A stretch of DNA of 64,000 nucleotides from a phage. Positions 38,529 through 52,931 of this stretch are shown in pieces; position 1 is the stretch's first letter; each line of letters begins with the position of its first letter. Position numbers and translations under genes: made by a program. The notes beneath the pieces were generated by a model that was given only the letters and a program-made list of their open reading frames with translations, was not told the origin of the DNA and did no database searches. The stretch is taken from the NCBI GenBank assembly GCA_010671865.1, contig GCA_010671865.1_4083.1; one strand, written 5' to 3'.

Positions 38529-38536
38529 CTATTTTA

Positions 38537-39049: not shown

Positions 39050-39058
39050 CAATTATTT

Positions 39059-39467: not shown

Positions 39468-39484
39468 AAGCTGTACTCCTTATA

Positions 39485-39775: not shown

Positions 39776-39780
39776 AGTTT

Positions 39781-40104: not shown

Positions 40105-40131
40105 TTATTGTTATCCTCTATTAAATTAATA

Positions 40132-40326
40132 TTACAGTTTATGAATCAATTCTTTATCTAAGCGATAGCGTACATTATTAATAGTAACGGCATTGTTTTT
40201 AATGCTACGCTGTACAGGTCCACCAGCAATAACAAATGTTGCTTTATTACCCCGAACAATGATAGCACTTCCAGGATTACCGAAATCATCTTGTACTAAA
40301 ATACTTGATAAGTTTTCCATTTTCAT
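40132..40326 (-). CDS. hypothetical protein
   Basis: 64-aa ORF; true start may be the second Met (MENLSS) by RBS spacing. Confidence 0.5.
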   Translation of the reverse strand: MKMENLSSILVQDDFGNPGSAIIVRGNKATFVIAGGPVQRSIKNNAVTINNVRYRLDKELIHKL

Positions 40327-40401
40327 TTCCTCTTAGTAGGGGAAGATGTTTCCCCTTGATGTAAGTACTATAACACTACTGGATAGTACTGTCAATACTT
40401 T

Positions 40402-40659
40402 TTATCTCATAGATCTATGCCAACAATTACGCGGGGGACGTTTAAAAGTACTATCATGATCCTCCTGGCAAGTTATGCAGTACTTACATCCCTTAACAGC
40501 CCGGCGGCGATTCTCAGGGATTTTATCGCCACAGTCGAGGCAATGTATCAGTGATTCTATTTGTGCGTTAATTTGCTTTCTAGCGTGGTTTACGGCGGCC
40601 TGAATCACTGCGTTAATCTCGTCTTGTTCGGCCCCGTCTTTCGCGAATCCTACAGCCAT
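40402..40659 (-). CDS. DksA/TraR-family C4 zinc-finger protein
   Basis: 85-aa ORF with C-x2-C-x17-C-x2-C and hallmark CLDCGDKIPENRRRAVKG...CITCQ. Confidence 0.6.
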   Translation of the reverse strand: MAVGFAKDGAEQDEINAVIQAAVNHARKQINAQIESLIHCLDCGDKIPENRRRAVKGCKYCITCQEDHDSTFKRPPRNCWHRSMR

Positions 40660-40856
40660 TATTTTAACCTTTTTCTATCATTAATTAATGCTTTCAGTAC
40701 TATACTAATAACTTGCAATGATTCATCAATGACTATAAAATTATTTTCTTTCATTAGATGATAGTTACCATTGATATTATATTCTAACGAGTACTGTTTA
40801 CGTTTAATTTTTGATAATGTTTCTATTTGTTTTTGTACTGATTTCATGCTAATCAT
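40659..40856 (-). CDS. hypothetical protein
   Basis: 65-aa ORF; 1-nt stop/start overlap with 40402..40659. Confidence 0.5.
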   Translation of the reverse strand: MISMKSVQKQIETLSKIKRKQYSLEYNINGNYHLMKENNFIVIDESLQVISIVLKALINDRKRLK

Positions 40857-40961
40857 TGTTAAACGTCCTGTAACGCATTCTAACGAGATAAACGGTTTAG
40901 TACTGGCATTGTATAGGGTAATGAATTAAAGCCCACCAGCGTTAACCAGTGGGCTATAATC

Positions 40962-41105
40962 TTACATCTTGCGGATAATCTTAACAGTATCTTTCACCGA
41001 TTTACCGTTTTGCTGACATTGTTCGATCATCGCGTATTGTTCTGCGGTCAGATCCTCGCCAGTTTTTGCCAGTACTGCATCGATGAATGAATCTAGTGCG
41101 ATCAT
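40962..41105 (-). CDS. hypothetical small protein (~47 aa)
   Basis: rough hand translation MIALDSFIDAVLAKTGEDLTAEQYAMIEQCQQNGKSVKDTVKIIRKM; approximate. Confidence 0.3.
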   Translation of the reverse strand: MIALDSFIDAVLAKTGEDLTAEQYAMIEQCQQNGKSVKDTVKIIRKM

Positions 41106-41204
41106 TTTGTTTCTCTCTTAGGTTAAGTTAACTACTGTTTATAAAACTTATTATACAGTACTATCAAACTATGTCAATATCTTTAATAGTACTGGTAATA
41201 TATT

Positions 41205-41447
41205 TTAGCGGTAGTCGTCGTATGCTTTATTCACCTGTCGAATGTAACTTTCAAAGGCTTCGTCTACCGTTTCATACTCCCGAACATAATCACCATAGGA
41301 AACTACATACATCCCTTTTTGATCTTCAAACGTCATGATGATAGAATCCAGGCCGATGATTTCAGTTTTTGCGATGATAGCCATTTTTAATTCCTTAGTA
41401 GTGTAGTTGATAAAACTTATTATGCCAGTACTATCAATCTTTGTCAA
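41205..41447 (-). CDS. hypothetical protein
   Basis: 80-aa ORF; promoter TTGACA-17-CATAAT without hairpin. Confidence 0.55.
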   Translation of the reverse strand: MTKIDSTGIISFINYTTKELKMAIIAKTEIIGLDSIIMTFEDQKGMYVVSYGDYVREYETVDEAFESYIRQVNKAYDDYR

Positions 41448-41466
41448 TAGTACTGTGATAATATTT

Positions 41467-41679
41467 TTAGTTAATGATAGTCAGTGTAAAATTGTAATCC
41501 CCTGCCTGGTATAGTACTTTGTCGCCGAACGTACCAACACGTTTCATATTGCAATAGATACCCATAACACTTTTTACATCTTTGATATTCCGAACGCCAG
41601 TGATATCCTTGTTGAAATTTTCATGATCAGAAAATAAAACTTGTTTTGCATTTTTCAGTACAGTGCAGATATTAGCCAT
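41467..41679 (-). CDS. hypothetical protein
   Basis: 70-aa ORF. Confidence 0.55.
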   Translation of the reverse strand: MANICTVLKNAKQVLFSDHENFNKDITGVRNIKDVKSVMGIYCNMKRVGTFGDKVLYQAGDYNFTLTIIN

Positions 41680-41762
41680 TTTGTTTTCTCTTTGTTAGTG
41701 GGGAGAATCATTTCTCCCCTTCATGTAACTTATTATACAGTACTATAATCTATTGTCAAACT
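41680..41762 (-). promoter_or_regulatory. promoter plus leader hairpin cassette
   Basis: TTGACA-16-TATAAT, hairpin GGGGAGAAATGATTCTCCCC; approximate. Confidence 0.5.
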
Positions 41763-41773
41763 ATTTTTTAATA

Positions 41774-42115
41774 TTATTCAAAATCTTCTGGACCGGACTG
41801 ATAATCATCTTCACCGTATGCACTTTCTAACTTCTCGCCAGTGTGATCATCAGTTAGTGAGTCATCCTCATAGTTCACGTCTACGCCTACAATGTAAAAC
41901 TGGCTATCGTCTGGATCATTGAAATTAATTTTCTGAATGTTTACAATAACGGTATTGATGCCCAGGACACCGCCATCAGCAGTTACAAAGTACTGATAGT
42001 TTTCACAACCGCCTGAATTGAAACCGTAATTAATTTCGGCCCGACCATCATTTAAACGCAGTACCTGGGCGATGATTTCGTTTTCAAAGTTAGATTGAGC
42101 AATTGAGATAGTCAT
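41774..42115 (-). CDS. hypothetical protein (acidic C-terminus)
   Basis: 113-aa ORF; C-terminal DDHTGEKLESAYGEDDYQSGPEDFE. Confidence 0.55.
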   Translation of the reverse strand: MTISIAQSNFENEIIAQVLRLNDGRAEINYGFNSGGCENYQYFVTADGGVLGINTVIVNIQKINFNDPDDSQFYIVGVDVNYEDDSLTDDHTGEKLESAYGEDDYQSGPEDFE

Positions 42116-42200
42116 GATTCGTTTCCTTATTACCAGGGGAAACCATTTCCCCTTGCGATGTAAAACATTATACGCTTATTGAGATAGTTTGCAAGTACTT
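42116..42200 (-). promoter_or_regulatory. promoter plus leader hairpin cassette
   Basis: TTGCAA-16-TATAAT-GTTTTACATC, hairpin GGGGAAATGGTTTCCCC, then TGGTAATAAGGAAAC RBS; approximate. Confidence 0.5.
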
Positions 42201-42296
42201 TTTAAAAATAGTTTTCAGTACTCAATACTTATATAATAGATACACTTATGCACCCTGTGGGCTAGTGAGCTATCTCTCAATGAATATATAATAGCA

Positions 42297-42327
42297 AAAT
42301 GGCTGACCGGAGTCAACCACTTTTTTT
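42297..42327 (-). terminator. bidirectional intrinsic terminator (repeated element, copy 4, with compensatory stem changes)
   Basis: hairpin TGGCTGAC-CGGA-GTCAACCA plus T-run; stem differs from copies 1-3 by paired substitutions. Confidence 0.55.
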
Positions 42328-42464
42328 CATTTATTTTTAGCTTTTAGAATCGCCGCCTTTCGTGTCATTCCTTGTTTGATGTACTCCTTTACTTTCGCTT
42401 TACGTGCTTTCGCTTTATCTGCTTTCGTTTTAGGAGTACTGTAAATTATACCGTTAGGATTCAT
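42327..42464 (-). CDS. hypothetical small lysine-rich basic protein (45 aa)
   Basis: hand-translated codon by codon: MNPNGIIYSTPKTKADKAKARKAKVKEYIKQGMTRKAAILKAKNK; approximate coordinates. Confidence 0.4.
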   Translation of the reverse strand: MNPNGIIYSTPKTKADKAKARKAKVKEYIKQGMTRKAAILKAKNK

Positions 42465-42554
42465 TTAAATCACCATAAAGAATAGATAGGTTACTAACAA
42501 TGCCGCGATCAATGCACCGACCAGGGCCGAACTGTAATAAGCCAATGATTTCAT
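42465..42554 (-). CDS. hypothetical small hydrophobic peptide (~29 aa)
   Basis: rough hand translation MKSLAYYSSALVGALIAALLVTYLFFMVI; ATGA overlap with upstream ORF; approximate. Confidence 0.3.
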   Translation of the reverse strand: MKSLAYYSSALVGALIAALLVTYLFFMVI

Positions 42555-42703
42555 TTTTTAGCCTGAAAATAGTGTTTAATTTGAGCGGCGGTCAGTGCAC
42601 AATTACGCAGGAAGTTTTCTGTATAACTGCGTCGAGTACTGAAAGAAAATTGACCTTTGCCGTTACCGATAGTAACATCAAACCGAGCATTATATTGTTT
42701 CAT
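42551..42703 (-). CDS. hypothetical small protein (~50 aa)
   Basis: rough hand translation MKQYNARFDVTIGNGKGQFSF...; AGGAG RBS; approximate. Confidence 0.35.
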   Translation of the reverse strand: MKQYNARFDVTIGNGKGQFSFSTRRSYTENFLRNCALTAAQIKHYFQAKK

Positions 42704-42817
42704 TTTGTTTCTCCTGATAGTGGGGAGTACTATTTCTCCCCTTCATGTAAAACATTATACAGTACTGAAAACTAATTGCAAGTATTATTTTTTAGATTTA
42801 CGCAAACTTTCTACCAT

Positions 42818-42931
42818 CTCAGGAGTAAGGCCCGGCGGGTAGGAAACCACTTCATCAACGAAACGTAAAGGGAATACCCCAGCGAAAGGTGAACATGCTT
42901 TCTTAGTATTACTCTTTTTTGATGCTTTCAT
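42818..42931 (-). CDS. hypothetical small protein (~37 aa)
   Basis: hand-translated MKASKKSNTKKACSPFAGVFPLRFVDEVVSLPAGPYS; AAGGAA RBS; own promoter/hairpin; approximate. Confidence 0.3.
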
Positions 42932-43000
42932 TTCATATTCCTTAATTAGTGGGGAGTACTATTTCTCCCCTTCATGTAAAACATTATACAGTACTGAAAA

Positions 43001-43210
43001 CTAATTGCAAGTACTATTTGAAAGTAAATGCTCATACGCTGCATTAACTACATTTTCAATAACCGACTGTACAGAAAGATCCCCCACGTCCTGGCTATAG
43101 TAGAAATTGCTTACAGTGGTGTCATCGTATGCAAATACTTTACCAGGTACGGCATCAATCACATACATATTAACCTTTAAGATGTCGATCTTATCCTGTA
43201 CAGTAAGCAT
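43001..43210 (-). CDS. hypothetical protein
   Basis: 69-aa ORF. Confidence 0.55.
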   Translation of the reverse strand: MLTVQDKIDILKVNMYVIDAVPGKVFAYDDTTVSNFYYSQDVGDLSVQSVIENVVNAAYEHLLSNSTCN

Positions 43211-43215
43211 ATTAA

Positions 43216-43488
43216 TTAACCTTTTAAGTACTGGCTTAAGTAGTCTTTTTGTTCTTCGGTGATTGCAGTCATCTTCCCTAGTACTGGATTGATGATATAA
43301 TCCCCTGTAACGTCCTGTACTGCGTTTTCAGGCTGTTTAACGGCAGGGGTAGCCATAGCCATAGCCTGGACTTGTTCCACACTGTAACGCTCATAAAGGC
43401 GGCATTCTTCCGGTGTTAACATAGCATCAGTACGCTTCATCGGTTTAATGATGCTTTCGATCTCATTCAGTACTTGATTAACGTTCAT
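43216..43488 (-). CDS. hypothetical protein
   Basis: 90-aa ORF. Confidence 0.55.
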   Translation of the reverse strand: MNVNQVLNEIESIIKPMKRTDAMLTPEECRLYERYSVEQVQAMAMATPAVKQPENAVQDVTGDYIINPVLGKMTAITEEQKDYLSQYLKG

Positions 43489-43539
43489 GGTATAATCCCC
43501 AATATAAGCGGCCTAAATCGACCGCTAACGATGTTTTGA

Positions 43540-43809
43540 TTAATAGGTGTATGGTTGACGCTCAAACAATGATTGTACGCTGTACGCCCCGCTAATGGGC
43601 TTCGCTGGTAAATCAATTTTATATTGCTCACGCTTAAAGATAATAAAACGGCAATTGTTTTTAACATCAAAATTGATTGAACGTTCCAGGAGTTTACCAT
43701 CGTGAACAAATACAAGATAACCACTTGGTACTTGTTTTGTAGTACTGGTTGCAACCATAGACCGACGAACATGTGTACCTGCATCGATTAAAGTACTGAT
43801 ATTTTTCAT
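43540..43809 (-). CDS. hypothetical protein
   Basis: 89-aa ORF; preferred over overlapping alternative frame 43485..43784. Confidence 0.5.
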   Translation of the reverse strand: MKNISTLIDAGTHVRRSMVATSTTKQVPSGYLVFVHDGKLLERSINFDVKNNCRFIIFKREQYKIDLPAKPISGAYSVQSLFERQPYTY

Positions 43810-43889
43810 TTTACTTTCCTCTTAAGTTGATTTAATTTCTTTCCCCTATGCAGACACTATATCAAAGTATCTGCATAAAGTAAAGCTAA

Positions 43890-44213
43890 TTAAAGATCTT
43901 TTTTGCGTTTAACATTCTGTACAGTACAATGCAACGGGATATTAAGATCATTGCACAAACGATAGAGGGAGGTTTCAACAGTATCAAGCCCGTCTACTGA
44001 TTCCTTTAAGAGTGATACCGCCGTTTGTTGATATGCATCCTCATAGCCATAAGTAAATGATTCAACCGCCAGATCATTCAAGCCGTTATCCAGTTCAACG
44101 CTTACATGACAAGAATGATAAGTATTGCCATATGAATCAGTCCAACGTTTACCGTCAACATTGATTGCATGGATTGCAGCCAGGGAAACGGTGTTGATGA
44201 TAGTTTTAGCCAT
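43890..44213 (-). CDS. hypothetical protein (paralog of 37761..38084)
   Basis: 107-aa ORF; shares RWTDSYGNTYHSC...FTYGY...KRKKDL. Confidence 0.6.
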   Translation of the reverse strand: MAKTIINTVSLAAIHAINVDGKRWTDSYGNTYHSCHVSVELDNGLNDLAVESFTYGYEDAYQQTAVSLLKESVDGLDTVETSLYRLCNDLNIPLHCTVQNVKRKKDL

Positions 44214-44299
44214 TTTAGTATTCCTTAAATTAATATGTGTCGTCTTGATAAAATCTATTATGCCAGTACTATCAAACTATGTCAATAGTACTGTGATAA

Positions 44300-44448
44300 T
44301 ATTTTTTACTTACTTTTTGCTTTCTTTGCTGCTTCCACCTGGTCGGCCCATTCTTTACCCCATACTTGTAAATTATAATGGTACTGGCAAAGTGCAACGC
44401 CCCGCTTTAAACCCGTAATAGATTTCTGACCACATTGACAAGTTTTCA
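44300..44448 (-). CDS. hypothetical small Cys-containing protein (~47 aa)
   Basis: rough hand translation MKTCQCGQKSITGLKRGVALCQYHYNLQVWGKEWADQVEAAKKAKSK; approximate. Confidence 0.3.
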
Positions 44449-44534
44449 TATTAGTTTCCTTGTAGTGGGGAGAATCATTTCTCCCCTTGATGTAATGTAT
44501 TATACTTTATTCGATTTACTTTGCAAGTACTTTT

Positions 44535-44762
44535 TTAATTTAATTCATCCAGGCAAAGGATACGTTCCACACCAAGATCCGTTAAACTAATGGTCGGTAC
44601 TTGATAGGTTTCAATGTATGCTACACTTGCCCACTGACCGAACTCATTAACGGCCCAGGTATTCATTGCATTTTGCAATTCCACACCTTCCTTGTTGGTA
44701 ATGACTGCAACTACTTGTTCGTTGCCAGTAGTACCAGATACGCGAGTAATGATAATAGCCAT
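44535..44762 (-). CDS. hypothetical protein
   Basis: 75-aa ORF; promoter TTGACA-17-CATAAT. Confidence 0.55.
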   Translation of the reverse strand: MAIIITRVSGTTGNEQVVAVITNKEGVELQNAMNTWAVNEFGQWASVAYIETYQVPTISLTDLGVERILCLDELN

Positions 44763-44837
44763 TTTTTAATTCCTATTCAGTAGTTGATGTATGTATTATG
44801 TCAGTACTTAAAACTATTGTCAAACTATTTTTTAAAG

Positions 44838-44985
44838 TTTATCAATGATTGATGCCGTTTCATTGATAGTCTTGCCGTGTTTTGCACACGCGATAACTGC
44901 TTTAAATTCCTTTGATGACCAATCTTTCTTGCTGCATACTGACATTACTTGTAAAGTAAAACAATCCAGTTCATAAGTATTCATC
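44838..44985 (-). CDS. hypothetical small protein (~49 aa)
   Basis: rough hand translation MNTYELDCFTLQVMSVCSKKDWSSKEFKAVIACAKHGKTINETASIIDKL; approximate. Confidence 0.3.
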
Positions 44986-45209
44986 TTTAAATCCTCAGTT
45001 AGTTAAGGTGTCTCGCCTTGATGTAATTAATTATACGCTAATCTCTTAATCGTGCAAGTACTTTTTATTACTTTTTGCAAAATACTTTAAACGCTCTCAA
45101 TCGCATTCTAACGGCCTTCACGCCACCAGCTAGGGCAATGCATCAGATAATCAGTTTAATGCGTTAGAATCGATTCTATCGGGTGCTAGTGGACTGGTAA
45201 ACGATAGAT

Positions 45210-45238
45210 ACAAAAAAGCCCACTGTTTAAGGTGGGCT
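45210..45238 (-). terminator. intrinsic terminator
   Basis: minus strand AGCCCACCTTAAACAGTGGGCT hairpin followed by TTTTTTG; downstream of 45260..45742. Confidence 0.6.
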
Positions 45239-45259
45239 AGTGATTCAGTACTTTAATTG

Positions 45260-45742
45260 TTATGCTTCAACTTTGCGATGAGCTTCGATCCATTCCTCGC
45301 GAGTCATACCGCTTTCTTTGATAGCGTCCAGTACTACCGCAATGCAGTTACCGCGTACAGGAATCATATGTTCTTCCCCGTTATCAAGTACTACAGTAAC
45401 ACGTTCTTGAATCCATTTTTTAGGTTTAGATTCTGGCTTATCTTCACCATACTTAACCGCCAGGGCTTTATGTGCCATTTCTACAACTACTTCCAGATCC
45501 AATCCAGACACCGCCGCCTGGATACTTTCGATTGTTGCTTGTAGTTCTGCTTCACGGGCTTTTTTCTGTTCTTCCAGTTCTGCTACCTTTTTGGCTTGCA
45601 GTTCTTTAGCTTCACTGTACGCAATGTTAAAATTGTTGCGTACTGCTTTCATGGTATCGTTATCCAGGTCAGCCAACAATTCAGCAGCAATAACAGTATC
45701 GTTTGAAATCAGTGCTTTCAGGAATGATTTTACATTAGCCAT
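45260..45742 (-). CDS. hypothetical protein with predicted coiled-coil segment
   Basis: track ORF trimmed to MANVKSF (GAGGA RBS); heptad-like KELQAKKVAELEEQKKAREAELQATIESIQAA. Confidence 0.55.
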   Translation of the reverse strand: MANVKSFLKALISNDTVIAAELLADLDNDTMKAVRNNFNIAYSEAKELQAKKVAELEEQKKAREAELQATIESIQAAVSGLDLEVVVEMAHKALAVKYGEDKPESKPKKWIQERVTVVLDNGEEHMIPVRGNCIAVVLDAIKESGMTREEWIEAHRKVEA

Positions 45743-45939
45743 TTTATAAATCCTCAATTAAAGTTTAGTTTACGTTTATTAGTGTATCAAAGTTTTATCG
45801 ACGTGTCCAGTTTTTCGTTCGACTTACTGGCGGTCTACTTAGTGCTCCCCGTCTTGATGTAATACATTCTACGCCTTTTTGTGGTAATGTCAACTACTAT
45901 TTTAAAACTATTTTTAAAGTATGCAGTACTACGATACTA

Positions 45940-45973
45940 CAAAAACAAAAAAGCCCACTGTTTAAGGTGGGCT
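45940..45973 (-). terminator. intrinsic terminator (same hairpin sequence as 45210..45238)
   Basis: identical AGCCCACtgtttaaGGTGGGCT hairpin with A/T runs; downstream of 45991..46290. Confidence 0.6.
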
Positions 45974-45990
45974 AGTGATTCAGTACTATA

Positions 45991-46290
45991 TTATAAACAG
46001 TTAATTACTCCGGTGTGCGTTACTTTCTCAGTATCCATAACAGTGACCGAACCGCGTTTAGTACTTGCATCGTAATAAATTGTCGTGCTACCTTTTTCGT
46101 CTTCTTCATGGAACGGCCCGTTTTTAAATGCTTCTGGCTGGATCTCTAAATCCTTTAAAACAATCTCGCCAGTACTTTCATTGGTCATCGCTACAGTGCA
46201 CTGAATGAATTTTTCACTACTTACATCTAACGACGCATTAACAGCGAAAGAGGAAACAGATAAAGCCAGGGCGATGATTGCAACTTTCAT
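45991..46290 (-). CDS. hypothetical secreted/periplasmic protein
   Basis: 99-aa ORF; N-terminal signal-peptide-like MKVAIIALALSVSSFAVNA with A-x-A cleavage context. Confidence 0.5.
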   Translation of the reverse strand: MKVAIIALALSVSSFAVNASLDVSSEKFIQCTVAMTNESTGEIVLKDLEIQPEAFKNGPFHEEDEKGSTTIYYDASTKRGSVTVMDTEKVTHTGVINCL

Positions 46291-46375
46291 TAGTATATCC
46301 TTAGTTACCAGGGGGGAACCGCTCCCCCTTGCGATGTAAAATATTGTACAGTACTAAAAACTAATTGCAAGTACT
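46291..46375 (-). promoter_or_regulatory. promoter plus leader hairpin cassette
   Basis: TTGCAA-16-TGTACAATAT, hairpin GGGGGAGCGGTTCCCCCC then TGGTAACTAAGGA RBS; approximate. Confidence 0.45.
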
Positions 46376-46612
46376 TTATGATTTTTTATAAAACATTTCG
46401 GCAGTGATATTTTTACCCGTTGGTTGTACTTTATCCAGAATTTTTTGATGCCCTGGCCGTCCAAATGAATATGATCCGTAAACCGTAAACCAGTAGTTAC
46501 CCTCAGTGTTTACATGTACAGCACAATAGGGAACGCCCCGCGATTCATCACTAGTAAAGTGTGCTACCGTTCCCGTTACATTCGAAGACGTTGATTTGAT
46601 TTGTTCGACCAT
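46376..46612 (-). CDS. hypothetical protein
   Basis: 78-aa ORF. Confidence 0.55.
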   Translation of the reverse strand: MVEQIKSTSSNVTGTVAHFTSDESRGVPYCAVHVNTEGNYWFTVYGSYSFGRPGHQKILDKVQPTGKNITAEMFYKKS

Positions 46613-46720
46613 TTTCTTATTCCTTAGTTACCAGGGGAACCGCTCCCCCTATGCAAAACATTATACGCGTTTAAAAACTAATTGCAAGTATTTTAATAAA
46701 AAGTATTTGAAAAATAATTG

Positions 46721-46749
46721 TTGACAAGTGCATCCAGTACTGGCATAAT
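46721..46749 (+). promoter_or_regulatory. candidate plus-strand promoter (antisense or small-RNA transcript)
   Basis: TTGACA-17 nt-CATAAT on plus strand in a minus-strand gene region; a palindromic hairpin lies ~80 nt downstream. Confidence 0.4.
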
Positions 46750-46819
46750 TACTACATCAAGACGAAACAGTCACTAACCCACCGGGTGCCGAGATCCGTC
46801 TATTAAATGATTCAGTACT

Positions 46820-46848
46820 GAAAAAAGAAAGGGGATCAATTGATCCCC
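46820..46848. terminator. bidirectional terminator (perfect palindrome)
   Basis: GGGGATCAATTGATCCCC flanked by A-run and T-rich run; downstream of minus gene 46855..47076. Confidence 0.55.
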
Positions 46849-46854
46849 TCGTTG

Positions 46855-47076
46855 TTATTTTGTAAGGTATAAACAGAAGTCACCTTTATTTGCTACGCCG
46901 CCAGTGTAACGCGAGGAATAGTTAGAAACGTCCTGGACTTCTGCTATTACCAGGGTATCATCATTCAATTCGTCGCAGAAGCAAACGGCTGGATCTTGTA
47001 CGCCGATTTTGTCGGCATGTTCCCGCATAGATTTAACCAGTGCTTCCAGTTGGGAAAGAGTAGTGATATTAGCCAT
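46855..47076 (-). CDS. hypothetical protein
   Basis: track ORF trimmed to MANITTL (GAGGAAA RBS). Confidence 0.55.
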   Translation of the reverse strand: MANITTLSQLEALVKSMREHADKIGVQDPAVCFCDELNDDTLVIAEVQDVSNYSSRYTGGVANKGDFCLYLTK

Positions 47077-47160
47077 TTTATTTTCCTCATTACCAGGGAG
47101 AACCATTTCTCCCTTGATGTAAACTATTATACAGTACTGAAAACTAATTGCAAGTACTTT
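47077..47160 (-). promoter_or_regulatory. promoter plus leader hairpin cassette
   Basis: TTGCAA-16-TATAAT, hairpin GGGAGAAATGGTTCTCCC then TGGTAATGAGGAAA RBS; approximate. Confidence 0.5.
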
Positions 47161-47161
47161 T

Positions 47162-47422
47162 TCAATATTGTTTGTCGTCGTCTTCCTCGATGAATTGACC
47201 GACGAAATGATCTACTTTCGCTTTGAGGCTTTTATAATCTTCTTCTACTTCCGTTAAACGTTCCTGGTAGTATTCCAGTGCCTCAAGATACGCCGCCTCA
47301 GCAGTTTTTGCACGCATAGCTAAATTCATTCCACGCGTTTCATCAAATAGCCAATAACCATCGGTGCAATGACTGATAGATAATGACTTGCTTAGTACTG
47401 TATAGTTAATTACTTTACTCAT
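47162..47422 (-). CDS. hypothetical protein
   Basis: track ORF trimmed to MSKVINY; upstream part reads through the leader hairpin. Confidence 0.5.
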   Translation of the reverse strand: MSKVINYTVLSKSLSISHCTDGYWLFDETRGMNLAMRAKTAEAAYLEALEYYQERLTEVEEDYKSLKAKVDHFVGQFIEEDDDKQY

Positions 47423-47480
47423 TAGATAAACCCTCAATAAAGGCGGGAACCATTCCCCGCCATTGTTACAGTACTGAATA

Positions 47481-47720
47481 TTACATTCCAACCATTGCAG
47501 CACGGATCGCAGTAGTGCTATACTTAAAGCCGTCCGGCGTTGTAGTAGTACCGTTGGCTTTTAATCTGCGGTACATGCATTCCGCTGCAATATCTTTAGT
47601 TCTACTTTGTGCGATACAACTTTGTGCAAGCCGATACAATGACTCACCGTTATTAATCCATAAGGAAACATTCCAATGAGTTTTGTTTTTGTGCCCGTTG
47701 TAAGTTTTAGTACTAGCCAT
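47481..47720 (-). CDS. hypothetical protein (mosaic paralog of 49523..49762)
   Basis: 79-aa ORF; conserved GHKNKTHWNVSLWINN and TPDGFKYSTTAIRAAMVGM termini, divergent centre. Confidence 0.6.
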   Translation of the reverse strand: MASTKTYNGHKNKTHWNVSLWINNGESLYRLAQSCIAQSRTKDIAAECMYRRLKANGTTTTPDGFKYSTTAIRAAMVGM

Positions 47721-47812
47721 TTTTTTTAATCCTCGTTTGAGCGGGGAACCATTCCCCGCCTCGATATAAAGTATTATACGCTTTTAAACTTAGTTTGCAA
47801 GTACTTTTTAAA

Positions 47813-48424
47813 TTAATATTCGATTGATTCTACTACACCATCAATGACATTGAATTGATATTCGTTACCCTCAATCAGTGCCGTAATGTTTTCAGTAGTG
47901 AATTGATCCTCATATGCATTCTCTAAATCACGGTACAACTTGCGGGATAATTCACGAATAGTTTCAGTGAGTAGTTCCTCAAGCTCATTAACTAACGTTT
48001 CTTGTTTTGCGGTTAAATCAGTGTAAGCCGATTCAATGTACCCGCTTACAGTATTCTCATGCGAGTAGTGGGAGTGAGAACGCTTTACACTCATCGGCAA
48101 ATCATCTTCATTCAGCAGGTGACGGATTGAGCGATACTTAGTTAATGCTCTTACCTTGCGTAAAAACTTCACTGCGTCAACGTGGTCAGTACTGATTGAT
48201 GCACCGTCACCCTGGGACCAAAAACCACTGAATTGTATTTCAGCGTCATTAATGCCATATTCCGGCAATACTGTTTCTTTATAGTGTTCAATTTCACTTT
48301 CAGAAAAATAATCGTCGTTTGAGTTTTTTTCACGTTCCCGAACTAGTTCGATAGCTGACGTTTTTTGTTCTGCGTTCAATTCAGAAAAAGCCATAACATA
48401 AGTAGTAGTAGTGATAGTTTTCAT
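47813..48424 (-). CDS. hypothetical protein
   Basis: 203-aa ORF; GAGGG RBS; long leader with tandem promoters. Confidence 0.55.
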   Translation of the reverse strand: MKTITTTTYVMAFSELNAEQKTSAIELVREREKNSNDDYFSESEIEHYKETVLPEYGINDAEIQFSGFWSQGDGASISTDHVDAVKFLRKVRALTKYRSIRHLLNEDDLPMSVKRSHSHYSHENTVSGYIESAYTDLTAKQETLVNELEELLTETIRELSRKLYRDLENAYEDQFTTENITALIEGNEYQFNVIDGVVESIEY

Positions 48425-48647
48425 TTTGTAACCCTCATTCAGTAGTTTATGTAAGTATTATACGCTTTTAAAAACAATTGTCAAACTATTTTATCAGGGG
48501 AGTTTTTCGTGTGCCTTACTCCTGGGCTACTTAACGGGAAGTTACTTATTTCGTTCCCCGTCCTGATGTAAAACATTATACGCCTTTAAACATAGTTTGC
48601 AAGTACTTTTTAAAAATAGTTTTCAGTACTGAATAGTAAAAAAAAGT

Positions 48648-48676
48648 ATTGACAGCATTATCAAGTACTGGCATAA
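48648..48676 (+). promoter_or_regulatory. candidate plus-strand promoter
   Basis: TTGACA-17 nt-CATAAT on plus strand; same AGTACTGGCATAAT core as 46721..46749. Confidence 0.4.
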
Positions 48677-48851
48677 TATACCCCATGACAACAGCTAACC
48701 CACCGGGTGCACAATTGTAACTATACTAAACTACTTTTTCTATAGATACACTCCCGCACCCTATGGGCTACGGCTTATCTGCCAATGAATACATTATGCC
48801 AGTACTGACAAAATAAGTCAATACCGGCAATTGTAAAGATTTGTAAACTGC

Positions 48852-49082
48852 TTATACTGCAATCGCGTCCAGGCTATAATAATAATAAGTGCCGTATTGG
48901 TGTACTTTATTACCTTTTATTTCAGTACTGAATGAATCCGAACGGTTTGCATATGATGTTAATTTAAAGTACTTTGATTTGCTGATACGTTGCCATACAC
49001 CGCAGATCCGCTGTAAGTAAGTAGTTTTATTCGTGGTAGTATCTTTTACGGTTTTAACTTCAGTCATATACATATTAGTCAT
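48852..49082 (-). CDS. hypothetical protein
   Basis: 76-aa ORF. Confidence 0.5.
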   Translation of the reverse strand: MTNMYMTEVKTVKDTTTNKTTYLQRICGVWQRISKSKYFKLTSYANRSDSFSTEIKGNKVHQYGTYYYYSLDAIAV

Positions 49083-49169
49083 TTTTATTACTCCAGGTTA
49101 TAGGCGGGAAGTGTTCCCGCTCTCGATGTAAAACATTATACGCCATTAAACATAGTTTGCAAGTACTTT

Positions 49170-49436
49170 TTATTCAAGTACTGCAATCTTTTTAGTACGG
49201 TACACGGTCACGCGGTTGCCCTTTCGGTCGAGCTTTATTTCTACCACTCGACGCGATACACTATCGGGACTTTTTAACGCCGCTAACCAGTACTGTAATG
49301 ATCTGGCGGTACTACGCTTTACAATGGCCCAACGTTCACCACTTGCCGATCCCGCTCCCATATCTTTAAACGTTGCCCCGTCCTGGCGTGCGGCGATCCG
49401 AGCTTGTTCACGCGTCGCAAAATACTTAATATTCAT
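49170..49436 (-). CDS. hypothetical protein (paralog of 37266..37661)
   Basis: track ORF trimmed to MNIKYFATREQ; shares FATREQARI...FKDMG...DRKGNRVTVY. Confidence 0.55.
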   Translation of the reverse strand: MNIKYFATREQARIAARQDGATFKDMGAGSASGERWAIVKRSTARSLQYWLAALKSPDSVSRRVVEIKLDRKGNRVTVYRTKKIAVLE

Positions 49437-49522
49437 GCTGTTACCCTTATCGTTGGTGTATGAATAAAACACTATTATAAAGTACTATCGCAAAAAAATG
49501 ATAGTACTTTAAATAAATTCTA

Positions 49523-49762
49523 TTACATTCCAACCATCGCCGCACGGATCGCAGTAGTGCTATATTTGAATCCGTCCGGTGTTTTATCTTGTCCAGTCTG
49601 TTCTAAAAATAGCATCATATGACGGGCCGCATCATTGCGATTTGTGCTATCGTTAATAAAGTCCTGGGCCAACCGGTATAATGATTCATCGTTATTAATC
49701 CAAAGGCTTACATTCCAATGAGTTTTGTTTTTGTGACCTAAGAACATTTTTGATTTAGCCAT
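49523..49762 (-). CDS. hypothetical protein (mosaic paralog of 47481..47720)
   Basis: 79-aa ORF; identical C-terminal 19 aa and conserved N-terminal block. Confidence 0.6.
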   Translation of the reverse strand: MAKSKMFLGHKNKTHWNVSLWINNDESLYRLAQDFINDSTNRNDAARHMMLFLEQTGQDKTPDGFKYSTTAIRAAMVGM

Positions 49763-49857
49763 TTTTTTTTAATCCTCTTATATAGTGGGGAACTATTCCC
49801 CACCTGATAGAAAGTATTATACGCCTTTAAACTTACTTTGCAAGTACTTTATTAAAC

Positions 49858-50220
49858 TTATTCGTAAATCTTGCCACTGTCAGCCCATACCAGGAAACGA
49901 GGCATATTATCCCATGCATCTTGTTTTAAGTTTAAGCCGTGCAATACTTCTGTACTTTCCATTCCTGGTACTGGCTTGCTATACACTGCAAACATTTCGC
50001 CCATGTACTGATAAGCCATCGTTAAATCAGTCTGGATCATCTTATGGATCATTGCATCCAGCATTGCAGTAGCGGCGTACTGTTCACGCTTAAGCGGCAA
50101 CATTGCAATAAGTTCCCGATAAGCTGAAATGTGAATTTTTACCGTTTCTGCCGGAAGATCTTTCATCTCGTCGCGGAAGTTAACCAGGTTAGCAATAATT
50201 TTATTGATTTGAGTCGCCAT
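49858..50220 (-). CDS. hypothetical protein
   Basis: track ORF trimmed to MATQINK; upstream MFYIESG is promoter/hairpin read-through. Confidence 0.55.
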   Translation of the reverse strand: MATQINKIIANLVNFRDEMKDLPAETVKIHISAYRELIAMLPLKREQYAATAMLDAMIHKMIQTDLTMAYQYMGEMFAVYSKPVPGMESTEVLHGLNLKQDAWDNMPRFLVWADSGKIYE

Positions 50221-50300
50221 CGTTTTAATCTCTCTTAATGTGTAGCGGGAAGTGTTCCCGCTCTCGATGTAAAACATTATACGCTTTTAAACATAGTTTG
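50221..50300 (-). promoter_or_regulatory. promoter plus leader hairpin cassette
   Basis: TTGCAA-16-TATAAT-GTTTTACATC, hairpin GAGCGGGAACACTTCCCGC; approximate. Confidence 0.5.
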
Positions 50301-50557
50301 CAAGTACTTTCTACATGTACTTTTAAAATAGTTTTCTTTCTATATAGGAGTACTATTATTCAGTACTACCAACAACCAGGGGAACTATCTTTCAGTACTG
50401 AATCAACCAAATCACTACTACACCCCATAAAACGGCCTCAGACGCATTCTAACGCATTAATACACCTAAGCTATACATTTGCACCGCCACCAGCTAACCA
50501 GGGCTTTACAGACCGTTTAAACGCGTTAAATTATTTTCAATTATTTTGTTTTTAGCT

Positions 50558-50586
50558 ATTGACTCAGTACTAAAAAAGCGTATAAT
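50558..50586 (+). promoter_or_regulatory. candidate plus-strand promoter
   Basis: TTGACT-17 nt-TATAAT; downstream transcript start resembles that after 46721..46749 (TACTACAT-GACG-GA-AG...CCGAGATCCGTC). Confidence 0.4.
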
Positions 50587-51022
50587 TACTACATAGACGC
50601 GAGAAAGCGGATACCCCAGGGGGTGCCGAGATCCGTCCAAAATTCATAAAATTTAAAAAGAATACACTCCCGCACCCTAGCAGGTCAACGCACTTTCTCA
50701 GTACTGAATTATAGTACCATAGTACGGCCCAGGATAGCAAGCAAATTAATTAAAACTTTTTTCATCCAGGGTATTGCTTTATTTTTCCAGTACTGTATAA
50801 TAGTTCCATCAAGTCGAGAAAGACTCCAGCCCACCGGGTGCATAGTTACGCCCAAAATTCAGTACTGAAAAAATTTTTAAAAATATCCGTCCAGGCCGTT
50901 GACATTGCCCCCAGTTTATAAGATAATGATTCCAGATTCAGAAAAATCTAACTCCAGATACTGCGGGGAAACTATCCCCACGCGGTAGGGGAACTATTGG
51001 AAAAAACAAAATAAAATTTTGA

Positions 51023-51097
51023 TTTAGCCGTTTAGCCGTCCAAACGTCTAGCCATCCAGAAATCTAGCCGTTTAGCCGTCTAGATGGATAGCCATCT
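51023..51097. repeat. tandem octamer direct repeats (iteron-like), unit yTAGCCrT
   Basis: TTAGCCGT TTAGCCGT CCAAACGT CTAGCCAT CCAGAAAT CTAGCCGT TTAGCCGT CTAGATGG ATAGCCAT in strict 8-bp register. Confidence 0.6.
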
Positions 51098-51722
51098 TTA
51101 CTTCCAGACTTCTGGAGGGCTAGACATATCTACGTCCAAAATCCATCCAGGGTAACTACGCCCAAAATCCGTCAGTACTATACCATAGATCTATCTTTTG
51201 AAAGGGAGTATTCAGTACTGCCATCATAGCCCTCACTATGTTACCCTAGGAGGATGAAGACTATCATGTAGTACTGAATACTGTTAGAGGGAACCCACCA
51301 GCACAAGCTGGTGGCATAATGATTTAGATTAAAATCAGTACTGACACCATTCTGTTAATATCAGTACTGTTATTACGATTTTCATATGAGGTTCAAAAAG
51401 ATGTACCACCACAGGAGGAACTATCTTTTCTGTACTGTCTCACGACAGGAGGTAGAGTAAATGAATTGTTCGCAGCAACTCATCACCCTATGTAGAACAT
51501 TATACAGTACTGAATCATAATGTCAATAGCTTTCTTTCATTATTCAGTACTGATATTCTTGAGAACTACCCGACTACAAACATCATTATATCCCACAAAT
51601 CATAAACGTCCCAACGTAAATTTCAACTTTCGAAGATCCAACTTTTATTTCATAGGTACTCCAAAATTTTTAGGATCGAGATTTAGGATGGAGTACTAAC
51701 CAACTTTTTGCTGGAGCCTCAA

Positions 51723-51743
51723 GGGGTAATGGAATTTTACCCC
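51723..51743. repeat. hairpin GGGGTAA-tggaatt-TTACCCC followed by GGGTAA repeats
   Basis: 7-bp perfect inverted repeat; GGGTAAAGGGGTAATTGAAATT downstream. Confidence 0.45.
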
Positions 51744-51949
51744 GAAGGGTAAAGGGGTAATTGAAATTAAGGTGAAAGTAATAATTCAGTACTAATCATT
51801 GCGTGATTACTTTTGATTACATTTGATGTAATTTGCAAAATGGAAAAGGAGCTTGGAAACTACAAAGTACGGCAGACTTCCTCTGCCTACTTAGTGGCAT
51901 ATCAGTACTGCTACGTTCTTGATTAAACGTGAACATTCCTGTACTCTAG

Positions 51950-52040
51950 TACTCACTACTGTTCACTACTGATCACTACAGTGATTATAAATGATTACTT
52001 AAATGTTTATATATGATTACTTATGACTACCTATGATTAC
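51950..52040. repeat. tandem short direct repeats (CACTACTG x3 and ATGATTAC x4)
   Basis: cACTACTGttCACTACTGatCACTACagtg then ATGATTACttaaatgtttatatATGATTACttATGAcTACctATGATTAC. Confidence 0.55.
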
Positions 52041-52154
52041 GGGGTTTAGCCTGGGGAGAATCCTAGTGATCGCATTTGTCCAGGCTGAATTTTAACAATT
52101 CGCCTGTACATAAAGGTTGTTCACTAGGAGCTTCCCCTGTCTCTATGTGTTTAA

Positions 52155-52346
52155 TTACTTTCTATATATAAGCATTAAGATATAGTAGTACTGATTATAC
52201 TGTACATTCTCTTTAATATTATAAGGGTCTATAGCAATCTCGGTACATCTGTTAAATGCATATCTATTAAATGCCAGTGGAATTATAGATCTAATCCATA
52301 CTTGTTCATTTTCTTTTAGTTTACTTATATAGAAGTTTTTATACAT
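52155..52346 (-). CDS. hypothetical small protein, family C
   Basis: 63-aa ORF; C-term YYYILMLIYRK. Confidence 0.55.
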   Translation of the reverse strand: MYKNFYISKLKENEQVWIRSIIPLAFNRYAFNRCTEIAIDPYNIKENVQYNQYYYILMLIYRK

Positions 52347-52361
52347 AGTATTCTCTATTAA

Positions 52362-52544
52362 TTAATATGATAGTACTAGTGTTAGTACTGAGCACAATTG
52401 TTCTTTATAGTTCTTAGGGTATATAGAATCTTTTATGCACTCATTGAAGTGCCATAGGTATAATCTTGGGTCGCATTCTTTATATATTCTTACGGGGACG
52501 AATGTTAGTTTTCGTATATAGAATTCTTTATGTTCTTTATTCAT
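52362..52544 (-). CDS. hypothetical small protein, family C
   Basis: 60-aa ORF; N-term MNKEHKEFYIRKL, C-term VLTLVLSY. Confidence 0.55.
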   Translation of the reverse strand: MNKEHKEFYIRKLTFVPVRIYKECDPRLYLWHFNECIKDSIYPKNYKEQLCSVLTLVLSY

Positions 52545-52549
52545 ATTAG

Positions 52550-52735
52550 TTAGTGTCTGTATATAAGTAATAGTAAGAATACGTATTGCACATCTTCATC
52601 TTTAGTATTGAGTACTGTACGTATTGCGTCATTAAACAAGAATATAGTACTTGGGTCATGAGAATTTAAAGGGGTTCTGGGTACGGCATGTTTGTAGTTC
52701 CCTTTAACAAATTGTGTGTAGTATTCTCTATGCAT
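52550..52735 (-). CDS. hypothetical small protein, family C
   Basis: 61-aa ORF; N-term MHREYYTQF, C-term FLLLLIYRH. Confidence 0.6.
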   Translation of the reverse strand: MHREYYTQFVKGNYKHAVPRTPLNSHDPSTIFLFNDAIRTVLNTKDEDVQYVFLLLLIYRH

Positions 52736-52736
52736 A

Positions 52737-52922
52737 TTAGTACCTATATATTAGGGCGAGAATGTAGTACAATTCATATGGAATGTAATTTGGGGTGATC
52801 GCACACTGTGTATGGTAAATGAATTGTTCGGTATTTTTCTTATCCTTGATATCTATTGGGATTTGTGGTATAAGCATTTGGGAGTTTAGATCGAGATGGC
52901 TTAAGTAGAATTCTTTATGCAT
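52737..52922 (-). CDS. hypothetical small protein, family C
   Basis: 61-aa ORF; N-term MHKEFYLSHL, C-term YILALIYRY. Confidence 0.6.
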   Translation of the reverse strand: MHKEFYLSHLDLNSQMLIPQIPIDIKDKKNTEQFIYHTQCAITPNYIPYELYYILALIYRY

Positions 52923-52931
52923 ATTGTTCTT

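Follow-up and report, generated by a model that had tools for sequence, protein, structure and literature searches.

An untranslated terminal module with a predicted MetJ-type operator array at the chromosome end of an Asteriusvirus-like jumbo phage

Introduction

The closest described counterpart of the DNA analysed here is Repeat Region 3 of phage T5, a 1.2 kb untranslated segment (9,194-10,409) that lies mostly in the left terminal repeat with a 270-bp overrun into unique DNA (Davison, bioRxiv 10.1101/866236; AY587007). This segment is rich in repeats, both direct and inverted, and in palindromes, is conserved above the level of nearby open reading frames (ORFs) and holds the T5 injection stop signal, with paired DnaA boxes (IRD'/IRC') proposed to halt injection (bioRxiv 10.1101/866236). 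Here we describe a repeat-rich region at positions 50,278-52,154 of a 64,000-nucleotide (nt) stretch of phage DNA (the window; contig GCA_010671865.1_4083.1) that in all likelihood is the untranslated terminal module of an ~20-kb direct terminal repeat (DTR), a cis-acting organizer of the chromosome end that is not a gene and probably not an iteron-type origin.

Other phage ends and repeat-bound regulatory sites offer further points of comparison. In PA5oct, a Rak2-related jumbo phage that uses host RNA polymerase, abundant non-coding RNAs arise from ORF-free parts of the terminal repeat (PMC7318152), and the repeat has been reported as an early region read by the host polymerase both for CBB and for PA5oct (PMC7318152). 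Long terminal repeats are already known in these jumbo phages and published descriptions assign no function to them; in the literature searched we found neither a description of a gene-free repeat tip nor a link between the host repressor MetJ and phage DNA ends. The ends of phage T7, in the work of Dunn and Studier in 1983 and in later work, reportedly combine a terminal repeat, arrays of short repeats, the early promoters A1-A3 and end-proximal promoters for replication and packaging. Both hairpin intermediates and transcription directed at the concatemer junction have been implicated in how T7 ends form. Iteron-type origins are known from lambda ori, the ori/crr octamers of P4 and the iterons of plasmids, and natural MetJ operators in general hold two to five boxes.

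Results

The region is 88-92% identical to the corresponding DNA of Asteriusvirus jumbo coliphages, including PBECO4, 121Q, phAPEC6 and G17, with near-full coverage in 35 records, and by this sequence comparison the source of the window is an Asteriusvirus (a PBECO4/121Q/G17-like jumbo coliphage). The 370,817-bp record of G17 begins and ends with the same 20,668 bp (0 mismatches), and alignment sets window position 31,996 at G17 position 1 and window position 51,891 at the last base of the G17 repeat. Seven linear records (G17, BF17, fEgEco12, E9.1, Ec-M-J, CRJP21 and WPEC3) end at the nucleotide that corresponds to 51,891, with the common terminal sequence ...GGCAGACTTCCTCTGCCTACT, also written ...GTACGGCAGACTTCCTCTGCCTACT; the six records besides G17 come from different depositing groups, and at least four of the end records were analysed independently. 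The opposite DTR end (AGGTTACCCGCCC...) is identical in G17, fEgEco12 and Ec-M-J and corresponds to window position 31,996. Published determinations agree on a repeat of this size: fEgEco12 has a 20,993-bp repeat with ends assigned by PhageTerm and confirmed by restriction digests (PMC13070987), PhageTerm gives a DTR of 20,668 bp in Sharanji and a repeat of ~20 kb in BF17, the ~20-kb repeat of G17 was inferred from sequence coverage, and the Ec-M-J record annotates 'Direct Terminal Repeats' at 1-21,525. An exact search of IMG/VR with the terminal sequence returned 121Q as its sole match, and relatives were taken from GenBank records instead. Together, these records place the end of the packaged DNA between 51,891 and 51,892, so that a physical virion DNA end falls inside a region for which an earlier note, made from the letters of the window, had named a genome terminus among the things to check. 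On this placement, 50,278-51,891 is the last 1,614 bp of the chromosome and forms both the tip of the right-hand repeat and the inner edge of the left-hand one, and 51,892-52,154 comprises 263 bp of adjoining unique DNA. The same note had correctly seen the region as a divider between a block of small genes and the family C and RCC1-like genes, and the divider is the junction of DTR and unique DNA.

No conserved ORF, and no ORF of at least 60 aa, was found in 50,556-52,154, which bears out the earlier description of the stretch as ORF-free. The largest ORFs that touch the region, of 105 aa (50,238-50,555, plus strand) and 59 aa (51,520-51,699, plus strand), were rejected as genes on account of frameshifts, stops and lost starts in most or several relatives. 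A 56-aa ORF with a TTG start (50,570-50,740, minus strand) has an intact frame in 13 of 14 relatives and is annotated in none of the curated records, and the curated records of G17 and phAPEC6 show the homologous 1.9 kb without any gene. A tRNA and tmRNA scan of the window found none. In Rfam 15, nothing in the window reached the gathering score, and a search of the region with E up to 1 gave no more than two matches, both of chance level (E at least 0.07).

Conservation of the region follows the mapped end. In an alignment of 15 relatives, identity to the window is 0.89-0.99 across 50,700-51,899, compared with 0.81-0.94 for the neighbouring 139-aa gene, drops abruptly to 0.64-0.69 directly outside the repeat (51,900-51,999) and returns to 0.94-0.97 at 52,000-52,099. 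Sensitive nucleotide comparison further reveals collinear blocks in otherwise highly divergent genera, for which we used Mimasvirus XbC2, CBB and GAP32, Erwinia phage Kaldavass, Eneladusvirus pEa_SNUABM_12 (pEa12) and Klebsiella phage fENko-Kae01. Blocks A and B, an octamer array, and Blocks D, E and F keep their order and rough distance to the end in XbC2, Kaldavass, CBB, GAP32, pEa12 and fENko-Kae01, and the block order relative to the terminus is kept in at least four jumbo-phage genera. Relatives whose records start at the mapped end show similar block-to-end distances; for the octamer array these are 644-822 bp in XbC2, CBB and Eneladusvirus and 780-913 bp in Asteriusvirus.

At the end itself lies an inverted repeat (Table 1) that is conserved in divergent relatives, and the DNA end falls at the base of its stem. 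Five exact TGATTAC motifs, all on the plus strand, stand within 237 bp that straddle the DNA end (51,804-52,040), with barely any window-wide enrichment of this motif. Block F is 82-93% identical in XbC2, fENko-Kae01 and pEa12, where it lies 50-200 bp from the termini, and its within-genus identity is 0.98-0.99. Beyond the end, the ~75 bp at 51,911-51,985 are hypervariable even among close relatives, with differing number and kind of repeats and insertions of 10-45 bp between flanks that are 94-99% conserved; error-prone end processing or recombination at the repeat boundary might account for this. The CACTACTG array sits in this variable segment, where each phage has its own set of short repeats and indels, and the adjoining flank (51,991-52,099) has 0.94-0.97 identity.

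The earlier note listed the octamers, on the unit yTAGCCrT, among iteron-like direct repeats and considered such repeats typical of iterons or of phased binding sites. Read three bases later, the same letters become AGCCGTTT AGCCGTCC AAACGTCT AGCCATCC AGAAATCT AGCCGTTT AGCCGTCT AGATGGAT AGCCATCT, nine head-to-tail variants of the MetJ box (metbox) consensus AGACGTCT. We scanned the window with the half-box matrix and operator criteria of Augustus & Spicer 2011 (PMC3228920), under which an operator has at least two adjacent 8-bp boxes, each scoring at least one quarter of the consensus score, and a total of at least the consensus score (PMC3228920). The nine adjacent boxes score 5.5-10.7 bits each and 69.4 bits in total against a threshold of 12.6 bits and qualify as an operator; only one further site in the 64 kb qualifies, at 14.3 bits, and none of 200 first-order Markov simulations of the window went above 21.8 bits. 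As a positive control, a 5.2 kb locus of E. coli K-12 that includes metJ returned exactly the metJ/metB (four boxes, 31.2 bits) and metF (four boxes, 24.9 bits) operators. Across 91 phage boxes, base frequencies track the MetJ matrix at seven of eight positions, minor alternatives included. Tandem Repeats Finder describes the array at 51,025-51,083 as period 8 with 7.4 copies, or alternatively period 16 with 3.4 copies, and a repeat search found six in-register octamer copies at 51,022-51,109. No methionine or S-adenosylmethionine gene lies near the array and no matching family occurs in the ten neighbouring proteins, where a Pfam scan for MetJ, ribbon-helix-helix, Rep and terminase domains returned only DUF7249, twice. 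A BLAST search with the array against 5,426 E. coli genomes gave no match, real operators being too short for significance in 28 Gb. The iteron label thus gives way to a match with a host repressor site, and we lean, with limited confidence, towards the prediction that host MetJ binds the octamer array. The two DUF7249 matches are paralogous 79-aa early proteins (47,481-47,720 and 49,523-49,762; E = 4e-13 and 2e-11).

Related arrays occur near the ends of unrelated phages. BLAST matches to the array came only from phages with terminal repeats, and where ends are annotated the array adjoins the end or lies inside the repeat (Table 1). By matrix scan, XbC2 has runs of 8+4+2 boxes, CBB and GAP32 have 7+4+2 and pEa12 has 5+4+3+2; among T5-like phages, Vibrio phage Pontus has 15 boxes (111.7 bits) and Providencia phage PR1 has nine (88.5 bits) near consensus, and among T7-family phages PGT2 has nine boxes and KPV811 has 4+2. 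Carriers therefore span three unrelated families, Autographiviridae (T7-like), Demerecviridae (T5-like) and Rak2-like jumbo myoviruses, and their hosts (Escherichia, Salmonella, Klebsiella, Erwinia, Pectobacterium, Cronobacter, Serratia, Yersinia, Providencia, Vibrio, Aliivibrio, Aeromonas and Pseudoalteromonas) represent four of the five MetJ-encoding orders, Enterobacterales, Vibrionales, Aeromonadales and Alteromonadales, with one labelled exception. No specific DNA-binding protein is common to the three families, which makes a host factor a more economical ligand than a phage protein, an argument biased by database composition and by the seeding of the search from enteric phages. The array of XbC2 is 96.6% identical to that of Erwinia phage Kaldavass, and XbC2 belongs to the enterobacterial Mimasvirus group.

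Comparison of the region with Repeat Region 3 of T5 reveals a shared layout. Each is a stretch of 1.2-1.9 kb that lacks genes and lies where a long terminal repeat with early genes has its inner edge, with 1,614 bp inside the repeat and 263 bp outside it here and a 270-bp overrun in T5; each is dense in repeats, direct as well as inverted, and in palindromes; and each is at least as conserved as a neighbouring gene. A cluster of candidate sites for a host DNA-binding protein lies ~0.7-0.85 kb from the repeat edge in both, the T5 DnaA cluster at ~680-810 bp and the array here at 794-865 bp, and in PR1 it is a metbox array that occupies the position of the T5 DnaA-box cluster. By position, the MetJ-type array here corresponds to that cluster. 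The two regions differ in sequence, since no similarity was found, no Tequintavirus was among the BLAST matches and homology was rejected; in Repeat Region 3 a metbox run never extends beyond two boxes, AGTACT is absent and nine 'DRD' repeats (GTGCAAATCCGACA) are dispersed and do not form an octamer array. Two-step DNA transfer, moreover, is not known for this jumbo-phage group. By analogy, the region may work like, or be built like, Repeat Region 3, and it is not of its sequence family.

The array likewise resembles MetJ operators in its strict head-to-tail 8-bp units and 8-bp phase, and differs from them in length (9-15 boxes in the phage arrays versus four in each E. coli control operator) and in setting, near a chromosome end instead of upstream of a methionine gene. 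With the ends of T7 the region shares a gene-free tip, short-repeat arrays beside a terminal repeat and strong host promoters that launch early transcription; the T7 repeat, by contrast, is 160 bp, its short repeats have another sequence and spacing, and its end-proximal promoters are served by its own RNA polymerase. The T7-family phages PGT2, PSK2, KPV811 and NNA-G4 do have a metbox-type array near their ends. As in PA5oct, ORF-free segments lie within a long terminal repeat, with strong transcription known in PA5oct and predicted here for Blocks A and B.

The promoters of the region separate into inward and outward sets. The promoter of the first DTR gene shares its architecture with about 30 other minus-strand early promoters of the repeat, a design that consists of AAAAAGTAC-TTGCAA or TTGACA, 16-17 nt often ending in AGTACTG, TATAAT and then a leader. 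The DTR carries 11 perfect TTGACA-16/17-TATAAT promoters, all on the minus strand and the outermost of them inside the region, which agrees with a role of the DTR as the early region for the host polymerase; the outermost one (51,499-51,526) has no conserved ORF behind it. Opposite to all genes, three plus-strand promoters at 50,559, 50,774 and 50,899 face outward. The promoter-like sites listed in the earlier note are present, with one perfect (12/12) and two 11/12 matches and five near-consensus promoters in the region, but their total is not enriched (12 found versus 8.6 expected).

Two of the outward promoters precede conserved structured elements. The -10 element of P_A and the sequence downstream are 87-89% identical in XbC2, fENko-Kae01 and pEa12, and Block A shows the same cross-genus identity over 54-70 nt. 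Block A contains a CGC-GAGAAA-GCG hairpin and a long-range helix between GGGTGC (50,621-50,626) and GCACCC (50,672-50,677), and its consensus fold from eight sequences has 16 pairs, six of them compensatory, including a C-G to G-C change in XbC2 and Kaldavass. Block A paralogues follow plus-strand promoters at 46,721, 48,649 and 50,774. A promoter at the position of P_B is also present in XbC2, Kaldavass, CBB, GAP32, pEa12 and fENko-Kae01. In seven sequences Block B has 19 predicted pairs with 94% of cells paired and nine pairs with compensatory changes; none of 500 shuffles matched this, and slid controls were 40-54% paired. Its inner stem reads GGGGA/TCCCC in the window, CTGGT/ACCAG in XbC2, CTAGT/ACTAG in pEa12 and CGGAATAT/ATATTCCG in fENko-Kae01, and its conserved unpaired tail is CGCGG(T/A)AGGGGA(A/G)CTA(T/A)TGGAAAA, equally written CGCGG(A/T)AGGGGA(G/A)CTAATGGAAAA. 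Its invariant U-G pairs point to folding of the plus strand. These data are good evidence, though with only seven sequences not proof, that Block B is a conserved RNA structure. A mini-ORF after Block B (ATG GAA AAA TGA in XbC2) was rejected, its start being ATT in the window.

Further conserved elements lie between the array and the end. The ACG(T/C)CCAAAATCC repeats are conserved in fENko-Kae01 and pEa12, and the hairpin at 51,295-51,314 is annotated as a minus-strand terminator in G17 and is conserved in fENko-Kae01. Apart from a weak site at 51,369-51,336, the conserved hairpins were rejected as intrinsic terminators, with no clear U-run on either strand. All repeats listed in the earlier note were recovered by Tandem Repeats Finder, repeat search or direct motif search, and Tandem Repeats Finder also reports the CACTACTG array (period 10) and (A)TGATTAC arrays.

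Table 1. Features of the region and its surroundings in window coordinates, with metbox-type arrays of other phages in the last seven lines
Feature	Position	Strand	Details
Direct terminal repeat (DTR), one collapsed copy	31,996-51,891		mapped from relatives' records
Leader hairpin of first DTR gene	50,244-50,262		
Sigma-70 promoter of first DTR gene (139 aa, 49,858-50,277)	50,276-50,303	-	TTGCAA-16-TATAAT; fires inward
Outward promoter P_A	50,559-50,586	+	TTGACT-16-TATAAT, 11/12
Block A, candidate structured small RNA	~50,593-50,684	+	downstream of P_A
CCAAAAT(T/C)C, four copies	50,637, 50,852, 51,136, 51,162		direct search
Promoter P_A' and Block A-like unit ending in CGCCCAAAATTC	50,774-50,866	+	TTGCTT-N8-CAGTACTG-TATAAT; weaker promoter
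Outward promoter P_B	50,899-50,927	+	TTGACA-17-GATAAT, 11/12
Block B, two stem-loops and unpaired tail	50,933-51,004	+	downstream of P_B
Metbox array	51,026-51,129		nine contiguous boxes (51,026-51,097) and two in-phase boxes at 51,106 and 51,122
Two ACG(T/C)CCAAAATCC repeats (= ACGYCCAAAATCC repeats)	51,127-51,173	+	more copies at 50,628 and 50,843; family D4
Hairpin CCACCAGC-acaa-GCTGGTGG	51,295-51,314		-9.7 kcal/mol, z = -4.2
CAGTACTG pair, 14-pair terminator-like hairpin	51,336-51,369	-	both sites kept in 14/14 relatives
Outermost early promoter, inward	51,499-51,526	-	perfect TTGACA-16-TATAAT, CAGTACTG in spacer; 365 bp from end
Block F	51,650-51,716		GGTACTCCAAAATTT and (A)GATTTAGGAT(C/G)GAG repeats (GATTTAGGATGGAG-type)
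GGGGTAA/TTACCCC hairpin	51,723-51,743		-5.6 kcal/mol, z = -2.4, modest support
TGATTAC repeats within DTR	51,804-51,830	+	60-90 bp before end
Terminal inverted repeat	51,865-51,892		AAGTAcGGCAGA-cttcc-TCTGCCTACT/T (slash, DNA end); -8.1 kcal/mol, z = -4.0
Hypervariable short-repeat segment with CACTAC(T/A)G	51,911-51,985		directly outside DTR
CACTAC(T/A)G, three copies	51,954, 51,964, 51,974		period 10
Conserved unique flank	51,991-52,099	+	ATGA(T/C)TAC, four copies (51,991-52,040), then inverted repeat AGCCTGG...CCAGGCT from 52,048
ATGA(T/C)TAC, four copies	51,991, 52,013, 52,023, 52,033		direct search
Array in CBB	685-822		annotated 'redundant repeat'
Array in PR1	773-842 bp from inner edge of repeat		inside repeat 1-10,461, gene-free stretch
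Array in VF16			in 'Left terminal repeat'
Array in NNA-G4			in 'right long terminal repeat'
Array in PGT2	40-113		
Array in PSK2	12-60		
Array in KPV811	70-130 bp from end		

The most over-represented motif of the region, unlisted in the earlier note, is the palindrome CAGTACTG; the region has ten copies and the whole window 55, compared with an expectation of 0.75. All ten sites of the region are conserved in nearly all relatives, and the AGTACT core occurs 19 times in the 1.9-kb region (~0.6 expected). Window-wide, AGTACT occurs 258 times against ~21 expected from base composition and is densest at 31,996-56,600, with a density of 6.2 per kb across the repeat that rises to 10.5 per kb in the region. 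It is partly built into early promoters (AAGTAC/TTGCAA and AGTACTG/TATAAT), and inside long ORFs it is ~8-fold enriched in all three frames (29/14/19), which argues that selection acts on the DNA. The terminal regions of XbC2, fENko-Kae01 and pEa12 have AGTACT at an equal density, and T5-like ends lack it.

At the opposite side of the DTR, the left chromosome end at 31,996 starts AGGTTACCCGCCCTTTAGCCCCC..., and GC content jumps there from ~0.33 to 0.43. We found no significant hairpin and no metbox array at 31,996-32,150, and the two chromosome ends are therefore not symmetrical. A search for a cut-site motif common to both ends found none.

Several units elsewhere in the repeat are built from related parts. 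About 30 early genes at 32,900-50,300 (minus strand) share a stereotyped leader in which a promoter precedes GTTTTACATCGAG, a GGGGAA(n)TTCCCC hairpin follows, and a ribosome-binding site and ATG close the unit. The region holds many half-copies of this leader unit, such as GGGGAACTAT and CAGTACTG at 50,376-50,403 and 51,412-51,438, and parts of it may be decayed or re-used promoter units. Inside the minus-strand early region, near-consensus plus-strand promoters (TTGACA-17-CATAAT with TG) lie at 46,721-46,860 and 48,649-48,790 and are followed by the Block A paralogues (ACATCAAGACGAAACAG...CCCACCGGGTGC...), the first of which ends at a two-way terminator hairpin (46,830-46,849); these two units may specify antisense or small RNAs. 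The 40-nt sequences upstream of two promoter-plus-leader units, at 42,760 and 42,989 (within 42,720-43,010), are identical, which points to a recent tandem duplication of an early gene cassette.

Discussion

We propose that the region would act in cis to organize the chromosome end. The promoter of the first early gene would fire inward, and three host-type outward promoters would produce short, structured RNAs from the plus strand (Blocks A and B). A co-operative filament of MetJ with S-adenosylmethionine would coat the 9-11 metboxes that stand in 8-bp phase ~0.8 kb from the end, and the perfect outermost early promoter would fire inward 365 bp from the end. The GATTTAGGATGGAG and TGATTAC repeats that flank the conserved inverted repeat would guide a packaging nuclease, which would cut at the base of the inverted repeat to create both the DNA end and the edge of the repeat. 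We prefer a role for the host-protein filament in marking, holding or protecting the chromosome end during DNA entry or packaging; the filament might alternatively pause or anchor the entering DNA, block end-directed transcription or serve as a host accessory factor in packaging, as IHF does at lambda cos.

A replication origin would explain some of the same features, either with the octamers as iterons for an initiator or with the outward promoters making primer RNAs near the chromosome end. Like iteron-type origins, the region combines tandem short direct repeats, non-coding DNA and nearby promoters, and its three strong outward promoters, followed by structured transcripts with a conserved unpaired G-rich stretch, resemble the transcription-primed origins of T4, T7 and ColE1. 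Cumulative GC skew across the 64-kb window also has its minimum at ~52,000, which puts the sign change of total skew no more than a few hundred bases from the region. This sign change is real, but codon-position analysis of the window attributes it to a probable gene-composition effect, and we did not take it as evidence for an origin. Genes on both sides lie on the minus strand; the family C genes (tandem, 60 aa, minus strand; 52,155-56,125) have a coding-strand GC skew of -0.03 (codon position 1) and -0.34 (position 3), compared with +0.35 to +0.45 at position 1 in other genes, and inside the repeat the plus-strand skew at third positions is positive already, so that the flip probably stems from the atypical codon-position composition of family C. 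The region has no DnaA box (TTWTNCACA; the 13 in the whole window are at chance level), its GC content of 0.36-0.42 shows no AT-rich dip or unwinding element and is not below that of its neighbours, and in the Pfam scan none of the ten neighbouring proteins matched a Rep or initiator family. The CACTACTG array is hypervariable, and the 'iterons' match a host repressor site that recurs at the ends of unrelated phages. The earlier proposal of a candidate origin or regulatory hub thus survives as a dense cis-acting, regulatory non-coding region, and its iteron-type origin is without support; we consider an origin of either kind quite unlikely, and the outward promoters with their structured G-rich transcripts leave one primed by transcription a small chance. 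A hub for regulation or non-coding RNA only, its place at the chromosome end incidental, would account for the five near-consensus promoters, the covariation in the structured elements and the paralogous plus-strand units at 46,721 and 48,649, and has a precedent in the terminal-repeat RNAs of PA5oct. It would leave unexplained why block order and distance to the end are kept across genera, why the cut site, the terminal inverted repeat and the flanking TGATTAC motifs are parts of one conserved unit and why conservation stops exactly at the end, and we regard it as unlikely.

Other alternatives concern the array. In a T5-type injection hold, the repeat would enter first, transfer would pause at the protein-bound metboxes and early genes would be expressed before the remaining genome enters. 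The layout of Repeat Region 3, including the 263-bp and 270-bp overruns, the similar edge distances of the clusters in PR1, T5 and the present phage, and a repeat packed with consensus host promoters as expected of a first-entering segment all favour such a hold. Two-step transfer, however, is not known in Rak2-like jumbo phages, the podovirus arrays lie so near the end (within 130 bp) that a pause there would leave hardly any DNA exposed, and the T5 DnaA model is itself a preprint proposal (bioRxiv 10.1101/866236); we consider an injection hold possible but doubtful. The array might instead be a packaging or positioning site bound by a phage protein, for instance a small terminase ring or a ribbon-helix-helix protein of the omega or ParG kind. 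From what is known of omega, ParG and small terminases, an 8-bp phase suits both co-operative ribbon-helix-helix binding and wrapping around oligomeric rings, and the location near the end suits packaging; the systematic C at box position 3 also departs from real MetJ operators. Set against this, Autographiviridae, Demerecviridae and jumbo myoviruses have no specific DNA-binding protein in common, the carriers' hosts agree with the taxonomic distribution of MetJ and no DNA-binding domain was found in the ten neighbouring proteins, and a phage ligand has in our view a minority chance of being correct. Finally, hundreds of replicated arrays could act as a decoy that soaks up MetJ and so frees the host's methionine and S-adenosylmethionine synthesis from repression, to the advantage of the phage. 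MetJ represses metK and the met genes, a very high affinity is predicted and each genome has two copies of the array. A decoy would nonetheless not need to lie at an end, as the arrays of three families do, and T5- and T7-type phages destroy or silence host DNA early, so that de-repression of the host would be of little use; we hold this very unlikely.

Several observations weigh against the cis-acting end module with a MetJ filament, all functions of which are read from sequence. Some of the seven records that define the end were perhaps re-oriented by homology and not measured independently, and the left end lacks a comparable hairpin, so that the proposed cutting rule is incomplete. Early genes run towards the region in T5 and PR1 and away from it here. 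C replaces A at metbox position 3 in about half of the phage boxes (53%, versus 10% in real operators), and the ligand could be another ribbon-helix-helix protein or a phage protein. The terminal 2.1 kb of fENko-Kae01 has no metbox array even though Blocks A, B and F and the AGTACT enrichment are kept, which makes this phage a natural 'deletion' and the array an optional part of the module. The exception among the carriers, XbC2, is recorded as a phage of Xanthomonas vesicatoria, and Xanthomonas is without MetJ; this host label may be wrong or the host range unusually broad. Array-to-end distance is 0.65-0.9 kb in the jumbo phages versus 12-130 bp in the podoviruses and the PR1 array has the reverse orientation relative to its end, and these differences weaken the case for a single mechanical role.

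Beyond the long terminal repeats already described, the new elements here are a cross-genus terminal architecture with structured elements and a very long MetJ-type array in three families, for which we found no description in the literature searched. A broader synthesis, which we offer tentatively and rate below an even chance, is that 6-15 tandem metboxes near the ends form a 'super-operator' in three families that recruits a filament of S-adenosylmethionine-loaded MetJ, as a counterpart of the T5 DnaA cluster, and so ties DNA entry, protection or packaging to a host metabolic sensor, in jumbo phages within a cross-genus terminal module that also bears two new structured RNAs.

With a physical end placed here, what was an unexplained gap rich in repeats becomes a defined object, the probable cis-acting end module of a 350-kb phage chromosome, the parts of which can be mutated singly. 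In practice, the result supplies correct start and end coordinates for annotating the genus and, for the engineering of therapeutic jumbo phages, points out the strongest early promoters and small-RNA candidates. The T5 injection stop signal is not known to have been identified molecularly. If the array truly binds MetJ, a host metabolic repressor would be a structural component at the DNA ends of phages from three families and would give a handle on what stops, holds or marks the leading end of phage DNA.

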